A stretch of DNA of 57,125 nucleotides, taken from IMG/VR virus record IMGVR_UViG_3300033076_000756, positions 1 to 57,125 of that record; one strand, written 5' to 3'. The notes beneath the pieces were generated by a model. It was not told where the DNA came from. It saw nothing but the letters and a program-made list of their open reading frames with translations, and made no database searches. Positions within the stretch are counted from its first letter, which is position 1. Each line of letters starts with the position of its first letter. This document shows positions 8,511 through 57,125 of this stretch, one piece after another. Made by a program: the position numbers and the translations under genes. Origin of the DNA: a virus (taxonomy: Duplodnaviria; Caudoviricetes).

Positions 8511-11500
8511 TTAAGAGAAGCAGCTAGTAATTTTGCGCAAGTCCTCAATTATCTGTCCCTCCTCTACAAATTTACCATTTTTTTCTGTATTTTGTAGAGC
8601 TTGCTCTCTAATTTCTACTGCTTTAGCATATAACTCTTGCAATGATTCTAGTGTGAGCGCTGGTTTAGTGGCGGTGGTAGCGGTGGTGTTAAAGAGTGAC
8701 ACTTGCTGCGTAGAAGGTGTAACGGTCACTGCAGCCTTTTTAGCCTTGTAGTTTACAGGCTTGCCGGTAATCACGCTTTCACGGATTGCATCTATCCTTC
8801 TCTTACCATTTGGCGTCTTGTAGTATTCCTCCAGTGAAGAGAACATAGTTTTCTCACGGCTGTTGGAAGTCTTCATGGAGCCTTGTGCTTTTTCCATGAA
8901 ACGCACGGCAACGTTTGGATCCTTCATGTCAGCGTTTACATCACGCAGAAGCTTTTGGGCAAACTCAAGGTCATTGTAGGTAGTATTCAAGCTGTCTGCT
9001 TTTTCCTCTGCCTCAGCCTCCGTAGCAATTGGTTCAGCGTTAACTGTATGACCAGCTTTGTCTACAATGTCAAAGCCACCTTCTTCAGCAGCAGTTACGC
9101 CAAACTCCTCACCTTCTTTCTCAGAAGGAAGTCTATCGTCTTCTGGGTTAGTCTCATTTTCAATTCCAAAGAATGCCAACTGCTGAGCGTCATAGTTGAG
9201 CTGGCCCTCTGTACCAATCTCTGCGTCAACAGTAGGAATAGATGCAGCAGGTTGCTCTTCTACTTGTTCTGGTGCTGCAGCTGCTTGTTGAGCCTGTGCA
9301 TCACGAAGCATCTGAAGCTGCTGCTCCAGCTGTGCTACAATCTGAGGATCACCAAACTCACTGGTACGTTCTCTTTCAAGATTAGCTTCTATCTGAGCAA
9401 TGGCCATTTCAATGGTAGTAACTTCCTCTGTAGTTGACTCTCCCGTTTCTGGGATTTCAGTTGTATCTGTATTGAGATCACCATTTTCATCAACAATACC
9501 TACTATAGGTGTCTCATTATCCAGGCTGGCTTCTTCTACAGGATCTTGTGCTTTGATGAACTCAACGTCCTTGTCAATCTCCTCCTTGAACATCTCATAG
9601 ACCTTTTGCTCCCGCTCTGTAAGACTTTCATTTTCAGCTACTTTTCCAGCAATAATGTTACGTCTGGCAGCATCTAGTTTTTTGGTAGCAACGATCTCAT
9701 CGTACTCTGCCTCAGGAATGTCTCCGGTGAACTCCTGGGATCCATACTTGGCAGACATGCGGGCAACAGTATCCTGGATCAGTTTCTCAATATCCTTGGA
9801 AAGCTCCTGAGCATAGTCTTCTTCTTTAACAGTGATTTCAGGGTTAGCTGCCAGGACCAGAATCTTTTTATAAGCATCGCTATCCTGTACGGTATTGATC
9901 ACCTCGTTCACAAATGCCTCCTGATCTGCAGGGTTACTTACACCAGCTTTTTGCATAAGCATGATAGCCTGGATCTCTGCCCTGGTAAGCAACATGTCCA
10001 CATACAAAAGAAGGTTGTATTTAAAGTTACCATCCACCATACGTTCTGTTGCAGCCAGGTAGTTGTCAGTGTTCAAAAGAACATCCACACTGCGCATGTA
10101 ATCGCGTGTGTCACGGTCCAGACGGATGTAGTCATATACCTTTTGGAAGCCATCTTGCAAACCTTGCTCAGATAACTCAGTATTGTTGTTGACTTGTTTG
10201 TTCTTGATATTCACCAACTTACGGAAAGTATCCAAGACCTCAGGATCCATATGGTCATATTGAGGTGCTTGGTTTCCTGTAGGATTGCCATCTACATCCA
10301 GCTCATCCACTTTGCCCTGGTATTTACCAAAGAAGGTGTCTGCCAGTTTATCGCGCTCTACAACTTCTCCCTCTTCTGTTTCACCTATAACGCGTTTGCG
10401 ATTATCCCAGTAGCCAACCCATTTATTAAGAAGCGCTTGTTCTTCAATCTTGTTATCCAGGTTCTTCTGGATATCAGCTTTTGTCTCAGCATCTAAACCT
10501 TCAGCTTCAAGTGACTCTCGTAGTACGCGGATCTCACCGGCAATGTTTCCTATTTCCCCTTCCAGGTTCATTGGATTTGTCAGAACTCTGATAGCATAAT
10601 CAGAGCTGTTTTGCATTCCAGGAACATTCAGTAGATCATTAGCTACTTGCTTAGCGCGCTCTGCAGACATGGTTCCTTTGAGCTGGTTAAGTGCAATGAA
10701 CTGAATGGCATCTTCCTGAGCTTTACGGGTAAGTGCCGCGGCATACTGGGTGTTGGTACCTTTAGCATAGTCAGCTGGATCTACCAGGCGTGACTTTACA
10801 TGGCTTGTAAGATCATCAACGGCTTTGCTATATTTTTTGATTTTACCTGCCACATTCTGAGTAAACTCAGATGCAGAGTTAAAACCAGTGTCTTCTAACT
10901 TAACACCAAATGATGCTTCAAATTCATCATTGGTCATTTCAGCTCCCATTTGACTGACCGCTCTATACAGAACGTCTTGAGTACCAGTACGTTTTGCAGA
11001 TACTACGGCAGCAATAAGGGCGTTATCTTTTGCATTCTCAAATTCATAACGGTCACCCTTGGCAGCTGCGTAAGACATATCCTGGGCAGCCTGGGTTTGA
11101 GCATTAAAATTGAATGTCTTGTTTTCAAACTTACCCTCTGAGACTTGTCTAAGTATAGCATTTTGTGCAGCAATATCAGCATCAAACTGAGCTTCCTGTT
11201 GCTTCAAAGGATTGTCCGCAGGATTGTCTTTGTACTGACGGTTGACTGCCGCGCGTTGGGCAGCATCCATGGCACCAGTAGCTAGTCTGGTAGGACCGCT
11301 AATCAGAACCCCTGTGACAGCACCCATAAGGAATGTCTTGAGACCCTGCTTGCTAAACTGTTCAGAAAGTCCTTCACCAAAGGCGTCAGACAAGGTTTGA
11401 TTGGTGCCGTCAAACTGAGAAGCATAATAGTCTCTCCAGGCAGCGGCTGATGTTTCCTGTAAGTTTTCCTGCAAACCTTCTGTCACAGAGAACTTAAGGA

Positions 11501-18600: not shown

Positions 18601-19116
18601 TTCTTGCACCAAGGCAAGTTTGGATAACATTTCTGTATTGGTCTTGAGCATCTCAGCAGCAGTACGTTTTTTCAAAGGGTCAGCATTCTCATCTTTAAGA
18701 ACCTGGATGTACTCATTGATCTGGTACTTCTTGGCAATCTCAGCCGGTGTGTATCCACCTTTTCTGTTACCCATACCAAATACCTTTGAGAGTAGCTCTT
18801 TGTCTTTGATGCGTAGTTTCTTTGTATCTGAGAAGATGAATGAACCTTCAGGAAGATTGACAGGCATACCTCCTTTAGAATGGCGTTTGCCTACAAAGCT
18901 CATGTGCTCCAAGAAGCCATCACCATTGATATCACCAACCACGGTTTCCCCGCCTTCTACTTCCACATTGGCATCCTTGCGGTCAATTGCCGTCATGGTA
19001 TTCTTTACCTCTGTATTGGCGTCACCAGGACCTACATTGTAGATCATGTTGTTAACCAAAGAGAAGTCTCTCTGGTCTCCCTTCTGAGGTTGTCTTTTTA
19101 TCCTGATTTTATGCAT
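15661..19116 (-). CDS. Virion structural/cargo protein (1151 aa), crAss-like
   Basis: The N-terminal ANVEVEGGETV...GKRHSKGG...PEGSFIFSD motif is typical of a crAss-like virion protein encoded after the tail stabilisation gene. It has a low-complexity middle and xxxGG motifs. Confidence 0.65.
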   Translation of the reverse strand: MHKIRIKRQPQKGDQRDFSLVNNMIYNVGPGDANTEVKNTMTAIDRKDANVEVEGGETVVGDINGDGFLEHMSFVGKRHSKGGMPVNLPEGSFIFSDTKKLRIKDKELLSKVFGMGNRKGGYTPAEIAKKYQINEYIQVLKDENADPLKKRTAAEMLKTNTEMLSKLALVQESMKGFPDGIPALAESAAMAMQGGPEQEAPAQPEAKYGGRMSKYPGGGELPKIGDTYYVNGKPVKLKKLVEDSWTDYITPNWVSDPGGAYFEDANGKTFYLTYDEFKDLRNKTSVNRTGANDNSWWNGDYNREYNFSTNKGGKIPGITTTKKLANGLPLTLNVGDSVKTMKGEFVVTDPQHIPGTHGPETSMVAAKNVKTGKTEYIMVGTLMNDINRDLASVTNIGQPAKASSSNSEWGNDMVEEIKPAANIGAKAGAAVAPGGKLTAIGDRDYTLKGRDFQYRPAKDKNGTKYWAFKEDNGNWYAVTNQTSIDRLNKHYGFDIQLPGSTPTQTTTTKTANTAPVKKSTTTTAPKQGGYNDTNALMSSFALGGYIPEYLLAGEVDEPAVGPGDGPGDGLTSKVGDQKQMQQSTNQRIDPNQEIFVRKDMYKGKPVTLYYKGNEKIVKDEAGNIIERAPRTDGNKFEQYGSQNINQILAQNPNVRYTNTNFGSFGRQPNVKGTGIYLSSGNAQARSNNDLSPEEWKDFQDRHGDWIEKEYPGGFAKYQQDLRASRESGDKAAAWFQDKVNEKSMKEFGVPYFQPLNGKEDTPYKRDSKFGQVTYSVPRFFEMGDPKKDTEITLDTPKPLVAYYCVENEDGTKSVQSVTYNEGEQPVPPTGKSVSSAFADQGSAEKICAINPQPGGTPNPAKKPAGPWWLQDIVNYVGASTDQVNRYGATQGSVDLQTPGYDLLDPTRQIASIQEQDARQNQQIENTVDGNVGLAATLASSGDSLGHSANILGQYENANIGIVNNAYDKNAQIMNQEIGTNEAGRVKYVEDNATLNQQIDNALNKKKWRQIAAFNNGTTNWFRKKQMEQVLFPEVYVDPIMGDVSVTPGMSNREIFGPDVYVNPVTGQKGSTAGGYTTDQVNAAWKQYYDEALPVRGEEEARKYATKMTETMMNKSTATPDWRTSYANAFATGSTLPGQAYGGEFELPWEEI

Positions 19117-19154: not shown

Positions 19155-19174
19155 CTACATTTAGAATTTACAAA
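19155..19174 (-). promoter_or_regulatory. Candidate late promoter (TTTGTAAATTCTAAATGTAG)
   Basis: Intergenic, ~40 nt upstream of ATG 19116; near-identical to the motifs at 30232 and 35825. Confidence 0.55.
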
Positions 19175-19219
19175 TTTATTTCCTGATATCCTAATTTGTA
19201 GAGGTAAAATGTAGATGTG

Positions 19220-31606: not shown

Positions 31607-31626
31607 CCTCTACAAATTTACAAAAA
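31607..31626 (-). promoter_or_regulatory. Bacteroidota-type promoter (TTTTTGTAAATTTGTAGAGG)
   Basis: TAnnTTTG consensus ~25-35 nt upstream of ATG 31584. Confidence 0.6.
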
Positions 31627-52728: not shown

Positions 52729-52790
52729 TTACAAATATACTCAACAAGTTTAACTTCTACAAATTTGTTCATATATTTGTAGAGGTTTAA
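52729..52790. promoter_or_regulatory. Divergent Bacteroidota-type promoters with inverted repeat
   Basis: TATATTTG on the minus strand (52732-52739) and on the plus strand (52772-52779); inverted repeat aacttctacaaat...atttgtagaggtt. Confidence 0.55.
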
Positions 52791-52842
52791 ACTCAAAAGC
52801 TTGATAATCCATGCTTTTTAATCATTAACATTTTGTAGAACT

Positions 52843-53088
52843 ATGAACGACAAACTCAAGCTTTTTGGAACGGGTGTGCTGCAGGTATACTTTGTGGCCA
52901 TTAACACAGTGTTCCTATCCCGTGAGCTGTACTGGGGTGTACTCTTTGCAGCCTTCTCTATCTCCATGGTCTGGAGCTATAACATCAAGAAGATAGCCTT
53001 TGGCACCCTGGCAGAACGGATCTTCTACTCAGCCGGTGCTACAGCCGGTTCCCTCCTGGGCCTGTTATCAGCCCAACTTTTCAAGTAA
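52843..53088 (+). CDS. Small membrane protein (81 aa)
   Basis: Three hydrophobic segments; Y..GA..GS..G motif. Confidence 0.65.
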   Translation: MNDKLKLFGTGVLQVYFVAINTVFLSRELYWGVLFAAFSISMVWSYNIKKIAFGTLAERIFYSAGATAGSLLGLLSAQLFK

Positions 53089-53110
53089 ATAACCCATAAT
53101 CCCAATCCCT

Positions 53111-53758
53111 ATGAAAGAACCAAACAGAGTTCGCAAGAACGAGATCAAGTATCTCATAGAGCTGAACGAAGAGCAAAAGCACGCCAAGGCATTGATCCGC
53201 GAGAACCAGATCGTGATAGTCACAGGCCGGGCAGGCTGTGGTAAATCCCTGGTTAGCGCACAGACCTCCCTGGATTTCCTCTTCAAAAAAGAATGCGACA
53301 ACATCTATGTCACCAGGGCTACGATTGAAGTGGGTAATACCCTGGGTCTGCTACCTGGTAATATGGACGAGAAGTTCAATCCATACCTGGAAGCCTTTAT
53401 GGAGAACCTGGTAAAATGCTACGACAAGAGCAAGATCGAACAGATTGTCAAGGACAAGAGAATTGTGGCACTACCCGTGCAGTTCATCCGCGGTAAGACA
53501 ATAGACGATGTGCTAATCGTAGAAGAAGCCCAGAACCTATCCAAGGCACAGATGCTTGCCATTCTCACACGCCTGGGCAAGACCGGTAAGATCATCATCA
53601 ACGGTGACAATGAACAAAAGGACATCAGAGACGAATACAACGGACTGAGTTATGCCATTGAACTGAGCAAGAACATCAAGGGAATCCAATGGATCAAACT
53701 CCAGCATAACCACCGCTCAGACCTGGTAGGACAAATCTTAGACTACGAATACAAATAG
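53111..53758 (+). CDS. phoH: PhoH-like ATPase
   Basis: GRAGCGKS Walker A, ITR-like VTR, LGLLPG, IRGKT, EEAQN, TRLG, GD..QKD, HRS. Confidence 0.93.
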   Translation: MKEPNRVRKNEIKYLIELNEEQKHAKALIRENQIVIVTGRAGCGKSLVSAQTSLDFLFKKECDNIYVTRATIEVGNTLGLLPGNMDEKFNPYLEAFMENLVKCYDKSKIEQIVKDKRIVALPVQFIRGKTIDDVLIVEEAQNLSKAQMLAILTRLGKTGKIIINGDNEQKDIRDEYNGLSYAIELSKNIKGIQWIKLQHNHRSDLVGQILDYEYK

Positions 53759-53760
53759 CC

Positions 53761-53964
53761 ATGACGATACACAACCAATTTGAAATGGGTGAGATCGTAT
53801 ATCTCAAGACAGACCCAGAACAACGCCCACGCCAGATTGTAGGTATTGTTCTATCCATTGACGGTGGCATGCTTTACAAGTGTGTTGCCGGTCTAGAAGT
53901 AGACCTTCACTTTGAGGCAGAACTTTTACGTGACCGCGACATGGTCATGGCTACCTCTTATTAA
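53761..53964 (+). CDS. Hypothetical protein (67 aa)
   Basis: F..GEIVYLKTDPEQ.PR (SH3/KOW-like small phage protein); follows phoH. Confidence 0.6.
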   Translation: MTIHNQFEMGEIVYLKTDPEQRPRQIVGIVLSIDGGMLYKCVAGLEVDLHFEAELLRDRDMVMATSY

Positions 53965-53980
53965 AATACCCCACCCTGTC

Positions 53981-54019
53981 AGCAAGACCCTCAGGTACCC
54001 CCTGGGGGTTTCTTGTTTT
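53981..54019 (+). terminator. Rho-independent terminator of phoH operon
   Basis: AGCAAGA-CCCTCAGG / CCTGGGGG-TT-TCTTGTT stem with T-rich tail. Confidence 0.7.
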
Positions 54020-54148
54020 GGGAGCACACTGTAGGAAAAGGGCGCACCCTGATATTGCTGGGCGAGCTTCTGACACGGCGGATGGAGGGACGTATGGAGG
54101 AGAGAGTGAGGGACCCCCCAGCACAGCACCCCCCACGTCCACCAACGC

Positions 54149-54173
54149 ACCCTGTACCCCCCATGTTGTCCAG
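54149..54173 (+). promoter_or_regulatory. Conserved 25-nt upstream motif, copy 1 (candidate early promoter)
   Basis: ACCCTGTAC-CCCCC-ATGTTGTC-CAG. Confidence 0.65.
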
Positions 54174-54194
54174 GATCCCTAAATCACACACGCT

Positions 54195-54293
54195 ATGAAG
54201 CAATACGTCATTGCAGGTGTGTTCATCCTTGCTAAGTCTCTGCGAGAAGCCTATGCTTACTACAGAGAGTTTTGCAAGGAGAACGGTGAGTGA
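54195..54293 (+). CDS. Small hypothetical protein (32 aa, MKQYVIAGVFILAKSLREAYAYYREFCKENGE)
   Basis: Below the ORF-track cutoff; ATG lies 46 nt after the start of motif copy 1, with an A/C-rich leader like those of the neighbouring genes. Confidence 0.5.
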   Translation: MKQYVIAGVFILAKSLREAYAYYREFCKENGE

Positions 54294-54360
54294 CATGCTC
54301 ACGCCTGCGCAGGCACAACGGAGAGGTAGTACATCTATCTCTCTGTTCTGTATATATAGG

Positions 54361-54385
54361 ACCCTTTACACCCCAAGGAATTCAG
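54361..54385 (+). promoter_or_regulatory. Conserved 25-nt upstream motif, copy 2
   Basis: ACCCTTTAC-ACCCC-AAGGAATT-CAG. Confidence 0.65.
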
Positions 54386-54410
54386 TACACACCTTAAAAA
54401 CTTTTCAATC

Positions 54411-54638
54411 ATGAAATTAAACTCACTTAAGAAAACTGTTCTGCCATTTCAAATTGCTATGCTCTTTGTAATTGGCTTTGTGCTTGCATCTGTCATGGCT
54501 TTATGCCTTACAGGCTTCATCGCATTGTTCACACCAGCGACATTAGCAGAGATGATTGAGGCGCCTATCATGGCTATCATCAACTTCCTGCTGTTCATCA
54601 TCAGCTTAGTGTGTGTTGGCAACTGGCTGTGGGATTAA
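54411..54638 (+). CDS. Small membrane protein (75 aa, two TM segments)
   Basis: Two long hydrophobic stretches; preceded by motif copy 2 and followed by a hairpin. Confidence 0.65.
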   Translation: MKLNSLKKTVLPFQIAMLFVIGFVLASVMALCLTGFIALFTPATLAEMIEAPIMAIINFLLFIISLVCVGNWLWD

Positions 54639-54667
54639 CCTCTCACAGCCAATTGGCTTCTCACATC

Positions 54668-54692
54668 ACCTTTTACACCCCACTTTATTCAG
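54668..54692 (+). promoter_or_regulatory. Conserved 25-nt upstream motif, copy 3
   Basis: ACCTTTTAC-ACCCC-ACTTTATT-CAG. Confidence 0.65.
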
Positions 54693-54725
54693 TTCATTAA
54701 TTACTAACTAAAAAACCTTTAACAC

Positions 54726-55247
54726 ATGAACAATCAAGTAACTATCGTTCCCGCATCTGAAACAGGTGCATTAGTGCAGACTTACAAGTCTAACCCTGCT
54801 TACGGCTACATCCAGCTCGCTTCTGAGGAGATGAGCATTGACGGCACCTGGATCCGCACCAAGAAACGTTCTACTCTGCTTCGCGCTGAGACTGAGCTCT
54901 TGCACAAGTTCGTTGCCACTGTTGGCAAGACTGGCTCTATTCCAGGCAAGATCGTTGTCCGCGAGTTCCTGGAGTCTCAGGTCCCTGAGAACTTCAAGAC
55001 GCGTTTCAACAAGAACGTCTCTTACGAGGACCAGATTGCGCCTTACGTGAAACGTGCTGGCAAAGACGGCATTGAGCTCACGCTTGGCGGGGAGCGCATC
55101 TTGCGTTTCACAGATTACGATGCGTCTGGCAAGGAGCAGGACGTGCAAGTTGCGCACGACAACATCTCAGCTGTTCAGCAGTCTCGTGCATCTATGGAAG
55201 TCTCTACATCTAACACAGCGTTAGGTGACGAAGAGGCACCATTCTAA
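54726..55247 (+). CDS. Hypothetical early protein, paralog A (acidic tail ending DEEAPF; possible ssDNA-binding protein)
   Basis: Clearly homologous to 55949-56437 (YKSNP.YG.IQL, DG.WIR.KKRST..RAE, NKNVSYE.QIAPY.KRAG.DG.EL..GGERILRF). Confidence 0.75.
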   Translation: MNNQVTIVPASETGALVQTYKSNPAYGYIQLASEEMSIDGTWIRTKKRSTLLRAETELLHKFVATVGKTGSIPGKIVVREFLESQVPENFKTRFNKNVSYEDQIAPYVKRAGKDGIELTLGGERILRFTDYDASGKEQDVQVAHDNISAVQQSRASMEVSTSNTALGDEEAPF

Positions 55248-55253
55248 GCTCTT

Positions 55254-55277
55254 AGGGCGGGGGTCACACCTCGCCCT
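55254..55277 (+). terminator. GC-rich hairpin after paralog A
   Basis: AGGGCGGGG-GTCACA-CCTCGCCCT; lacks a strong U-tract. Confidence 0.5.
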
Positions 55278-55308
55278 TATGCTTTACTCTATATAGAGAG
55301 AAACCTAA

Positions 55309-55333
55309 ACCCTGTACACCCCAAACTGTCCAG
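55309..55333 (+). promoter_or_regulatory. Conserved 25-nt upstream motif, copy 4
   Basis: ACCCTGTAC-ACCCC-AAACTGTC-CAG. Confidence 0.65.
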
Positions 55334-55358
55334 TATTCACTTTTAAAACACACACACG

Positions 55359-55658
55359 ATGACTACACACTTTAACATCGCAAAAAAGATTGAGGTTAAC
55401 CCATTTGAGAACGTCAAGTTCGTTAACCTCTCATCAGGTTTCAGCTACGGTGCAGAAGCTCTCAGACCATTCATGGATAACGTCTCTGAGGATGTCGTTG
55501 CCCGCAAGATCAATGGTAGCTGGGTGATTCTCTACCATATTGGTGTGCTGGACTTCACTACGCTGGTGCACTGGCTTGAGCCGTTCAGAGGCAAGTTCCA
55601 CTACAAGAACAAGAGCGTTCACTTCCGCATTGAGGAGGACGTGATGTTCTGCTGGTAA
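55359..55658 (+). CDS. Hypothetical early protein (99 aa)
   Basis: ORF framed by motif copy 4 and a downstream hairpin. Confidence 0.65.
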   Translation: MTTHFNIAKKIEVNPFENVKFVNLSSGFSYGAEALRPFMDNVSEDVVARKINGSWVILYHIGVLDFTTLVHWLEPFRGKFHYKNKSVHFRIEEDVMFCW

Positions 55659-55672
55659 CATCTTCACAGCTT

Positions 55673-55700
55673 TGAGGGCAGGGTTCACGCCTTGCTCTCA
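55673..55700 (+). terminator. GC-rich hairpin after 99-aa gene
   Basis: TGAGGGCAGGG-TTCACG-CCTTGCTCTCA; related in sequence to the 55254 hairpin. Confidence 0.5.
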
Positions 55701-55712
55701 TACGCTGTATGA

Positions 55713-55788
55713 AGTAACAGTTCCCACGCCGCTCAGATGAGTTACTCAAAAAGTAACCGTTCCCACACTCAGTAGTAAGCGTTCCCAC
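55713..55788 (+). repeat. Three direct repeats AGTAAnnGTTCCCAC
   Basis: Copies at 55713-55727, 55752-55766 and 55774-55788. Confidence 0.7.
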
Positions 55789-55886
55789 AGTTTTTTCCTC
55801 AACCTAAAAGCCTCTCAAGCTGGGGCATTCAGCTCAGGCTATACGACACGGTGAGTGCAGTTCTTTCTCACCCCTTAATACACACC

Positions 55887-55911
55887 ACCCTTTACCCCCC
55901 AAAAAATACAG
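55887..55911 (+). promoter_or_regulatory. Conserved 25-nt upstream motif, copy 5
   Basis: ACCCTTTAC-CCCCC-AAAAAATA-CAG. Confidence 0.65.
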
Positions 55912-55948
55912 TATTTACTCAAATGTTTAACCCCCAAAAAACACAGTT

Positions 55949-56437
55949 ATGTCTAAAGTACAGATTGTTCCTAACAAGGAAGGCAACGTGATTAGCGCCT
56001 ACAAGTCTAATCCAGAGTATGGTTTCATCCAGTTACAGCAAACAGCTGTAGTCTGTGACGGAGGCTGGATCCGTGAGAAGAAACGCAGCACTATTATGCG
56101 CGCAGAGATGGGCTTGTTAAGCCGCTTTGTGGCCGCTAATAAAGCGCTCGCACTTCCAGGAAACATTGTTGTAAAAGAGTACTTGGAGTCTGAGGTTCCT
56201 CAAGATATCCAGGCGCGCTTCTACAATAAGAACGTGAGCTATGAAGAGCAAATTGCTCCTTATATCAAACGTGCAGGCCAGGATGGCGTAGAGCTTTGCC
56301 AAGGTGGTGAGCGTATCCTTCGCTTCAGCTTCTATGATGCAGCCGGTCAGGATACTGATACCCGCGTGCAACATGACAATGTCACTGTAGCAGTAGCTGA
56401 AGACACTGAAATCAGCACAGAGACCACAGCATTCTAA
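55949..56437 (+). CDS. Hypothetical early protein, paralog B
   Basis: Homologous to 54726-55247; acidic tail ending TETTAF. Confidence 0.75.
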   Translation: MSKVQIVPNKEGNVISAYKSNPEYGFIQLQQTAVVCDGGWIREKKRSTIMRAEMGLLSRFVAANKALALPGNIVVKEYLESEVPQDIQARFYNKNVSYEEQIAPYIKRAGQDGVELCQGGERILRFSFYDAAGQDTDTRVQHDNVTVAVAEDTEISTETTAF

Positions 56438-56456
56438 TCCCATTAGTGTGTGTAAA

Positions 56457-56512
56457 CTCTATAGAGAGGGAGAGAGAGAACAACAACTTCTTTCTCTCTT
56501 CTCTATATAGAG
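56457..56512. repeat. Long imperfect inverted repeat bounded by CTCTAT(AT)AGAG palindromes
   Basis: CTCTATAGAGAGGGAGAGAGAGAA-caacaac-TTCTTTCTCTCTTCTCTATATAGAG directly after paralog B. Confidence 0.6.
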
Positions 56513-57125
56513 AGAGTAAGACAAACATATGCTGCTTCACTTCTTCTTCTCACTTCTATATAGAGTAAAACACAACATGTGACGCTACATTTCATGTGTG
56601 TGTTGATTGTTGTTTGATAAACCCAGCTTAGCATGTTGTGTTCCTCTTATAGATCAGTGAATTCTCACACGGAAAATCACGCAAACCCTGTACCAGTAAG
56701 GGATAGAGAGAGGGTGACTATTCACCCCTAACCCCTTCTTAACCCCCTGAAAAAGTGTCAATTAACCCCTGAAATTGTCGCATTAGATAGCTACATCTGT
56801 GAGAAGACAGTTAAGCAAGACTGTTATGTTGACTGTATGTTGTGTAGTGTATCTACTCTATACAGTACTCTATATACTTCTATATAGTGTTGTTTCTCTC
56901 TCTATAGTAAAAGAAAGAGAGCGTCCCGTTTTTGTCTAAACACCCCGCTCTTGTCCAAGCAGGATACCCCAAGGATTGCAGCCTTGCAAGAGTACGAGAA
57001 AACCATCCACCCAGACTAAGGGCTTTCTTTCTAGCAGGTAGGGATACCTGTGAGGTTGTTAGAAGAAATGCATTGTTGTATATGGAAAGGTAGAGATATT
57101 GATGCATTCTCTCTACAACTCTTAG

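Follow-up and report, generated by a model that had tools for sequence, protein, structure and literature searches.

Introduction

Bench work on early transcription in crAss-like phages comes from one study, on the Cellulophaga phage phi14:2, which gave no common motif for the early transcripts, and no published description of a promoter for a crAss-type virion RNA polymerase was found in the literature searched. In phi14:2, the virion polymerase gp66 transcribes the rightward early genes (preprint 10.1101/2020.03.07.982082). In the present study, we analyzed a 57,125-nucleotide (nt) stretch of virus DNA (IMG/VR record IMGVR_UViG_3300033076_000756; the whole stretch is called the window below), in which five copies of a 25-nt motif stand ahead of five small rightward genes, and we considered whether these copies could be promoters read by the crAss-type virion RNA polymerase homologue that is encoded at the other end of the window. 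The two phages are alike in their polymerase family (DFDxD motif, tblastn matches to crAss polymerase genes) and in genome layout: early genes run rightward and structural genes leftward in opposing blocks, and the leftward genes have promoters of the host type.

By analogy, the nearest experimentally grounded parallel is the Thermus phage P23-45. The two-barrel virion polymerase of this phage, the tail-tape-fused protein gp96, was assigned a conserved motif found at the pre-early genes only; the AT-rich motif was located by cappable-seq and chromatin immunoprecipitation sequencing, the block lies at a genome end and also has a dedicated conserved termination motif, and relatives that encode the polymerase keep the motif (PMC10770324). 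The locus studied here resembles P23-45 in three ways: a single-polypeptide two-barrel polymerase is fused to a giant protein, a conserved motif lies upstream of a small first-gene block and is limited to it, and the motif is kept in polymerase-encoding relatives. It differs in that the motif here is C-rich and two-part, whereas that of P23-45 is AT-rich with mapped start sites, and in that P23-45 hands over to a second phage polymerase, none of which was noticed in the present analysis.

The arrangement of the genes recalls the PeSL cassettes of the T4-type phages RB49 and phi1, in which each small non-essential gene is flanked by a repeated promoter on one side and a stem-loop on the other. 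Entire cassettes distinguish close relatives, recombination between the repeats is the proposed cause, and the promoters are strong sigma-70-like host promoters (PMC2839356). The array in the window likewise combines a repeated element and an inverted repeat around single small genes and shows gain and loss of cassettes between close relatives. It differs in that no sigma-70-like site fits here and in that motif copies bound only one of the two observed cassette changes.

Coliphage N4 has a few early promoters (P1-P3), which are small DNA hairpins and are read by an injected virion polymerase, a T7-like single-subunit enzyme. The system proposed here would be similar in that the first-expressed genes depend on a handful of promoters dedicated to a virion polymerase that is injected, and would differ in that neither strand of the motif folds into a hairpin and a two-barrel polymerase takes the place of the T7-like enzyme. 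In the T7 group, the promoters are ~23-25 nt long, reach the start site and contain a block of positions that varies between phages and matches each phage's own polymerase, a T7-like enzyme made after infection. The motif shares with them the compact form and a lineage-varying block, while there is no likeness in sequence.

Results

Five copies of a 25-nt motif head the genes of a short array

The window is a whole linear IMG/VR record with an estimated completeness of ~45% and, judged from its genes, is a fragment of a distant crAss-like phage. It was scanned on both strands with the pattern ACCYTKTACMCCCCANNNNRTNCAG, allowing up to two mismatches, with 100 shuffled sequences as the control. 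Five matches were obtained, all exact and all on the + strand (Table 1), while the shuffled sequences gave a mean of 0.00 matches and a largest count of 0. With a 15-nt core of the motif (up to one mismatch), five forward and no reverse matches were found, and the reversed control pattern gave none in either orientation. A preliminary description of this DNA, made from the letters only, had reported five copies with identical spacing that start 46-62 nt before an ATG and had not noticed the motif in the structural block; the scan agrees with it on each of these points, the five array copies being the only ones in the window.

As calculated from the coordinates, the distance from motif start to ATG is 46, 50, 58, 50 and 62 nt for copies 1 to 5, respectively, which leaves 21-37 nt between the end of the motif and the ATG. 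The gap to the stop codon upstream is less regular, at 29-228 nt. A copy is present ahead of the first cassette gene and none is found beyond the last. Because of the short distance to the ATG, the variable distance to the preceding stop codon and the presence of a copy before the first gene and of none after the last, the motif is assigned to the downstream gene, and this placement fits a 5' signal rather than a terminator. An inverted repeat lies 3' of each of the small open reading frames (ORFs; 32, 75, 173, 99 and 162 amino acids [aa]), and copy 3 starts only 9 nt past the palindrome that precedes it, so that there is no room for another promoter at that place. The copies thus have several promoter-like traits: they lie on the coding strand, they are coupled to the downstream gene with the inverted repeat toward the upstream gene, and their place is kept in relatives despite diverged flanks. 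From these traits, we consider it very probable that the five copies act as promoters.

The preliminary description went too far in placing the motif before every early gene. In the scan of the whole window, no copy was found at the PhoH operon (three + strand genes, 52843-53964), which lies just ahead of the array, and in the close relative G001, a 30-kb IMG/VR contig that is ~95% identical in the shared parts, the 19 kb of downstream + strand genes, packed in operons, are without the motif. Since neither the PhoH operon nor this 19-kb region has copies, the motif heads only the short array of ~1.8 kb and not every early gene.

The motif is unlike sigma-70, TAnnTTTG and hairpin promoters

TAnnTTTG, located at -7, is the promoter element of the Bacteroidota primary sigma factor. 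It has 30 matches in the window (44 expected), none of which lies within 52780-56521, in keeping with the earlier remark that the motif does not resemble it. The extended form TAnnTTTGTA, often continuing as TAGAGG, occurs six times compared to 2.6 expected, and five of the six sites are located 36-94 nt ahead of a same-strand gene start, namely those of the polymerase and of the + strand PhoH operon (52843) and the three at 19116, 31584 and 52701. Two of them form a divergent pair in the 140-nt gap between the leftward and the rightward block, which is kept in all five of the relatives printed. The TAnnTTTG sites, together with the lack of Shine-Dalgarno sequences, suggest a host among the Bacteroidota. 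A sigma-70-like scan of the window gave six sites (6.3 expected), none positioned for a cassette gene, and the -35-like and -10-like boxes that can be read within the motif are 15 nt apart, compared to 16-18 nt for the sigma-70 type. Because neither TAnnTTTG nor sigma-70 sites serve the array, the 25-nt motif would represent a distinct promoter class. When the five copies were folded on both strands with DNA parameters (10 folds), the minimum free energy ranged from 0 to -4.1 kcal/mol (z -1.6 to +1.0); since no hairpin is formed on either strand, the motif is not a hairpin promoter of the N4 type.

Relatives carry lineage-specific versions of a two-part element

The 173-aa and 162-aa proteins of the array are paralogues; their family comprises 112 homologues, none of them named, and a genome usually has two copies. 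While a search with the 173-aa protein alone found only G001, the alignment of the 173/162-aa family was used for a search from which 47 loci were fetched. G001 is also the only other IMG/VR contig with the exact motif, and the window form T[GT]TAC[AC]CCCCA is absent from all 80 loci collected around the large terminase (TerL). A scan of relatives had been put forward in the preliminary description, and it was productive in that the other relatives carry their own lineage versions at the matching place. Judging from these loci, a two-part element is common to the family, and the 25-nt motif is the version of it found in the window; the element consists of a lineage box of ~9 nt, a C-run, 7-9 nt and a CAG-like triplet. 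The regions upstream of the paralogues, including the orthologues of the gene behind copy 5, share this plan, with the C-run and 7-9 nt followed by CAGTA, TAGTA, CACTA or similar, and ahead of their own first tiny ORF the relatives keep the C-run, ATG, four variable nt and YCAGGA, as in copy 1. A run of at least five C within 80 nt upstream was found at 40 of 82 paralogue starts (47 loci), compared to 8 of 545 control ORF starts.

In contrast to this shared part, the ~9 nt upstream of the C-run are lineage-dependent and are common to all copies within one genome. The box is ACCYTKTAC in the window (five copies), CAACCTTCAA in L174 (six copies), CAACACCTAAA in L168 (three copies), ACAGCA in L190 (three copies), ACCACA in L194 (three copies) and ACGTCA in L196. 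When promoters of the first tiny ORF and of the 162-aa type were compared within the same genome, they were 0.75 alike (13 genomes), a value that is inflated by the first identification of within-genome copies through their likeness to a seed from the same genome, whereas orthologous promoters of different genomes were 0.56 alike (156 pairs); the observed value was reached by none of 10,000 permutations. On this comparison, the lineage box evolves in concert within each genome.

The confinement of the motif to one array is also seen in near-complete relatives, with six of seven matches within 1.7 kb in G009, nine of nine within 4.0 kb in G002 and three of three within 2.3 kb in G011, and the number of cassettes among relatives ranges from 3 to 9. 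L046, whose TerL is 76% identical to that of the window, has nine copies of the form (T)CCAAACACCC-N7-CTAA, each ~35-50 nt ahead of a same-strand small gene, and one motif copy of this locus (3680-3140, - strand) heads ~500 nt without an ORF. In G001 (L006 3239-3345), ~110 nt with an inverted repeat are inserted directly after the copy-2 motif. Because of this insert and the ORF-less stretch of L046, the motif may also drive small non-coding RNAs; early intergenic regions of phi14:2 are reported to give such RNAs (preprint 10.1101/2020.03.07.982082).

Outside of the family, the exact motif gave 27 single matches among 185,579 species genomes, with no clusters and none resembling the window, 23 of the 27 being one unrelated coding stretch, mostly of haloarchaea; the contigs of JGI metagenomes gave 31 single matches, none clustered. 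A profile of six copies searched with nhmmer returned weak matches only (E 0.05-50), 25 of 33 on the strand opposite TerL, which serve as leads only. Among the repeats found by k-mer in relatives, those of L078 and L088 were coding repeats and those of L059 inverted-repeat elements, none of them analogous to the motif. In one sub-family (L186-L200), the stretch that separates the lineage motif from the first paralogue contains a conserved hairpin, GCACTATGGCCTTGAGAATTATAGTGC, ~30-75 nt ahead of the paralogue; its stem letters change while the pairing is kept (GTACTAT...ATAGTAC, GCATTAT...ATAATGC), and it may be a leader RNA element.

A crAss-type polymerase homologue is encoded in the window

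The last gene of the leftward structural block (3 to ~52700) is a giant ORF that continues beyond the window edge. A DFDVD motif lies at its residue 2653, and by tblastn residues ~2320-2696 of the ORF match crAss-like phage proteins in 81 records (best E 5e-15); among the 20 records listed, the named ones are annotated as "RNAP catalytic subunit". Since the ORF has both the DFDVD and these matches to crAss polymerase genes, the proposed reader of the motif is encoded in the window itself, and packaging of the giant protein in the virion would be expected from the homology. By sequence, the giant ORFs gave no PDB or Pfam match. The search for a polymerase homologue covered 15 relatives, G001 not among them: 12 have one, while the remaining three, with no match, are fragments or 62-67% complete, and the open frame in the relatives is 2,994-4,446 aa long. 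Two relatives carry a flag for terminal repeats, and the record of one of them, G012, breaks within the polymerase gene. The polymerase is 32-53% identical to that of the window in 13 relatives, compared to 72-80% for TerL, and is on this measure fast-evolving. The genomes with a deviant motif core, G002, G014 and G015, are those with the lowest polymerase identity (38, 33 and 32%, respectively).

Other polymerase-related genes were also looked for. No sigma-70 region 2 was found in any of five near-complete relatives, the control being positive in 10 of 14 genomes, and PF00940 (T7-like polymerase) matched none of the same number of near-complete relatives, a result in which the control genomes were silent too.

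Cassettes turn over in natural populations

In G001, copies 1, 2, 3 and 5 are present, the copy-4 cassette is absent, and an extra variant copy of the motif heads an extra 45-aa gene. To extend this comparison, the contigs of four public DNA runs from four studies were compared to the window at 53950-56950. The segment 55302-55773, which holds the copy-4 cassette, is skipped in all four runs, and in run X2 the cassette is also found on a minor contig with a depth of 193, compared to 2,366. In run X5, a 38-nt stretch that includes copy 3 is present twice, with 174 additional letters in between; this insert is the extra cassette of G001, and loose ends that match it are found in run X2. Whole cassettes thus come and go among the four runs and G001, indicating that cassettes turn over in nature. 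The change at the copy-4 cassette ends on its right side inside the GTAAC repeats described below and not at a motif copy, so that, of the two cassette changes by which the window and G001 differ, one has motif copies at its bounds. The preliminary description had suggested that the repeats may serve as recombination points for single-gene cassettes; the gain and loss of cassettes and the change bounded by two copies are in line with this idea, while the other change is not.

Weighing the readings of the motif

In the reading that we favor, the five copies would be the promoters of a short immediate-early array, each unit of which would consist of a promoter, an A-rich leader of 21-37 nt without a Shine-Dalgarno sequence, one small gene and an inverted repeat. 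The promoter would combine the lineage-specific upstream box (ACCYTKTAC here) with the family-shared C-run, 7-9 variable nt and CAG, and transcription would start at or near the A of CAG. The two-barrel polymerase encoded at the left end of the window would be packaged in the virion, enter the cell with the DNA and read the motif, while the host RNA polymerase would serve the TAnnTTTG promoters elsewhere in the genome. A phage-encoded reader is favored because the specificity box changes in concert while the host-type promoter stays constant in the same genomes, and the virion polymerase is favored because only virion-delivered proteins would be available at the very start of infection. We put the probability that the motif is read by the phage's own injected virion RNA polymerase at roughly 0.55. 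More tentatively, and short of even odds, the element could be the first promoter grammar for a crAss-like two-barrel virion polymerase (lineage box, C-run, 7-9 nt spacer, CAG-type initiator), with a box that co-evolves with the polymerase and with a short, fast-changing immediate-early array, and possibly small RNAs, under its control.

Several observations weigh against the favored reading. Motif type and polymerase identity go together along phylogenetic lines over ~7 lineages, and the TerL tree (14 genomes) is star-like with 4 of 10 inner branches unresolved, so that it cannot separate tracking of the polymerase from phylogeny. There is no C5 run within 80 nt of 42 of the 82 paralogue starts, some of which have the motif ~100 nt upstream, ahead of the conserved hairpin leader, and others a degenerate C-run, and the inflation of the within-genome likeness noted above counts on the same side. 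For phi14:2, no common motif was reported ahead of the early transcripts, and early expression, largely resistant to rifampicin, extends over the entire rightward module (preprint 10.1101/2020.03.07.982082); the motif here covers five genes (~1.8 kb), the long downstream operons of G001 being without it, which differs from the phi14:2 pattern. In the first 9 kb of phi14:2, nothing comparable was found among the 20 largest of 50 repeat families, which are mostly two-copy and AT-rich. The suggestion in the preliminary description that the motif is the recognition sequence of the phage's own RNA polymerase is therefore carried by the promoter-like behavior, the polymerase gene in the window and the concerted evolution of the box, and is weakened by the lack of an early motif in phi14:2 and by the array-only coverage.

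TATTAA, TATTCA or TATTTA often follows CAG and could be a -10-like box for the host enzyme, which also counts against the virion polymerase. If the host RNA polymerase did read the promoter, by means of an alternative sigma factor or of a retargeting phage factor that is delivered with the virion or made early, this T-A-rich hexamer (in many copies of the window and relatives TATTCA, TATTTA, TATTAA or TATAAA) would take the -10 role and T(T/G)TAC(A/C) would resemble a -35 box, and the lack of a motif for the phi14:2 virion polymerase and the few genes covered would both fit. We regard a host reader as unlikely, given the 15 nt between the boxes, the absence of any sigma-70-type call at the copies, a -35-like part that is not kept in relatives, a host-type TAnnTTTG that is constant across lineages while the motif varies by lineage, the lack of clustered copies among the 185,579 species genomes and the lack of sigma-70 region 2 in the five near-complete relatives. 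That the motif acts in RNA, the copies being processing or binding sites in a single array transcript for a co-evolving phage RNA-binding protein or nuclease, is improbable: the motif is without secondary structure on either strand in the 10 folds with DNA parameters, the array has no other visible promoter in front of it, the copy before the first gene comes directly after a terminator-like hairpin, and each cassette that comes or goes takes its own copy with it. This is so even though read-through is possible, with only two of the inverted repeats looking like intrinsic terminators with a T-rich tail, and even though the lineage box would fit a co-evolving RNA-binding protein equally well and a conserved hairpin leader stands between motif and gene in some relatives. 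Least probable, to our judgment, is a recombination scaffold or repressor operator without promoter activity of its own. Such a role would suit the extra 174-nt cassette bounded by two copies of the motif-holding 38-nt stretch and the cassette number of 3 to 9 among relatives, but the change at 55302-55773 ends in the GTAAC repeats, no other promoter is visible for the cassette genes, and a repeat serving recombination only would not be expected to hold its strand and its distance to the ATG constant, or to conserve both flanks around a variable spacer of 4-7 nt.

This phage family offers a sharp candidate signal with predictions for key positions, the start site and lineages that should not cross-react. 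If the motif is a promoter for the crAss-type virion polymerase, promoter finding by this enzyme would become accessible to in vitro study, the lineages would form a natural panel of matched polymerase/promoter pairs, and the signal would both explain how these phages begin infection and mark the immediate-early gene set, which consists mostly of unknown small proteins likely to act in host takeover or anti-defence. Use as an orthogonal expression system, as proposed earlier, is speculation. If the host polymerase reads the motif instead, it would represent a type of promoter not yet described, in freshwater bacteria that are presumably Bacteroidota. The turnover of cassettes shows where these phages try out new genes.

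Features of the array and its surroundings

The coordinates of the features are listed in Table 1. Two of the inverted repeats were called terminator-like hairpins with the strand of the array genes, the one that closes the PhoH operon and the one after the 173-aa ORF.

Table 1. Positions of the motif copies, genes, inverted repeats and promoter sites in the window
Feature	Coordinates	Strand	Remarks
Giant ORF, at least 2826 aa	3..8480	-	Runs off window; crAss-type virion RNA polymerase homologue; proposed reader
TAnnTTTGTA site	8565-8574	-	
TAnnTTTGTA site	19169-19178	-	
Protein, 1191 aa	19220-22795	-	DUF5872 + DUF5754; weak match to PHROG "minor head protein and DNA pilot"
TAnnTTTGTA site	31611-31620	-	
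TAnnTTTGTA sites, divergent pair	52730-52781		
Terminator-like hairpin, T-rich tail	53985..54011	+	Terminator scan; closes PhoH operon ahead of array
Motif copy 1, ACCCTGTACCCCCCATGTTGTCCAG	54149..54173	+	Heads 32-aa ORF
32-aa ORF, first cassette gene	54195..54293	+	Tiny ORF at matching place in relatives
Inverted repeat, end of 32-aa ORF	54286..54303	+	Read from sequence; terminator scan lists it on - strand
Motif copy 2	54361..54385	+	Heads 75-aa ORF; kept in G001
75-aa ORF	54411..54638	+	ORF list
Perfect palindrome AGCCAATTGGCT, after 75-aa ORF	54647..54658	.	Read from sequence
Motif copy 3	54668..54692	+	Heads 173-aa ORF
173-aa ORF	54726..55247	+	Paralogue of 162-aa ORF
Terminator-like hairpin, after 173-aa ORF	55254..55277	+	Terminator scan
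Motif copy 4	55309..55333	+	Heads 99-aa ORF; part of variable cassette
99-aa ORF	55359..55658	+	Gene of variable cassette
Imperfect GC-rich inverted repeat, after 99-aa ORF	55674..55699	+	Read from sequence; absent from terminator scan list
Motif copy 5	55887..55911	+	Heads 162-aa ORF
162-aa ORF	55949..56437	+	Paralogue of 173-aa ORF
Long inverted repeat, after 162-aa ORF	56456..56517	.	No motif copy beyond
Partial copy ACCCTGTAC	56685..56693	+	Upstream half joined straight to CAGTA, without C-run

The partial copy mentioned in the preliminary description is real, and it is probably not functional: it has no C-run and sits in a 189-nt segment in whose place 39 other letters are found in three of the four runs and which is also replaced in G001. 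A second partial core, ACCCCCAAAAAACACAG, lies at 55930-55946 in the leader of the 162-aa gene, 3 nt ahead of the ATG, and looks like a local duplication of copy 5. Upstream of the array, three runs of six C occur within 50 nt (54114-54163), the last of which ends in motif copy 1, and a C- and A-rich tract is found ahead of the first cassette in five relatives.

A palindrome, CTATATAG, has four copies in the window (55289, 56503, 56556 and 56880) compared to 0.59 expected, all in the early region, with looser forms at 54345, 56460 and 56855-56910; two copies, counting the looser forms, sit just upstream of motif copies 2 and 4. Together with the long inverted repeat after the 162-aa ORF, these palindromes could be an operator or an origin-like region. 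The 228-nt spacer before copy 5 contains three direct repeats, GTAAC(A/C)GTTCCCAC or GTAAGCGTTCCCAC, at 55714-55727, 55753-55766 and 55775-55788, and G001 has two of them.

The AlphaFold2 model of the 173-aa protein has a predicted local distance difference test (pLDDT) score of 90. In fold searches with this model, the best Foldseek match had an E of 0.038 (the oligonucleotide-binding folds of SSB and PriB) and the best VIA-align wide Z was 4.4, with none reaching Z 5. The 75-aa ORF, which had no PHROG or Pfam match, looks hydrophobic, as judged by eye from the translated DNA.

The portal, large terminase and major head protein of the window match PHROG families that we take to be typical of crAss-like phages. 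The best isolate match of the head protein is at 27.8%, to a Leptolyngbya phage, and crAss-like gut phages are weaker. The 1191-aa protein of the structural block is probably another ejected protein. TerL relatives are encoded on at least 600 IMG/VR contigs, with genomes of up to ~110-125 kb, and the labels of the DNA runs that contain the stretch are freshwater, riverine, estuary and seawater. Just past the position of the window's right end, a site in G001 (L006 5986-6075) matches the Rfam tRNA model with 45 bits over 90 nt, while ARAGORN calls none there; it may be a tRNA with an insertion.

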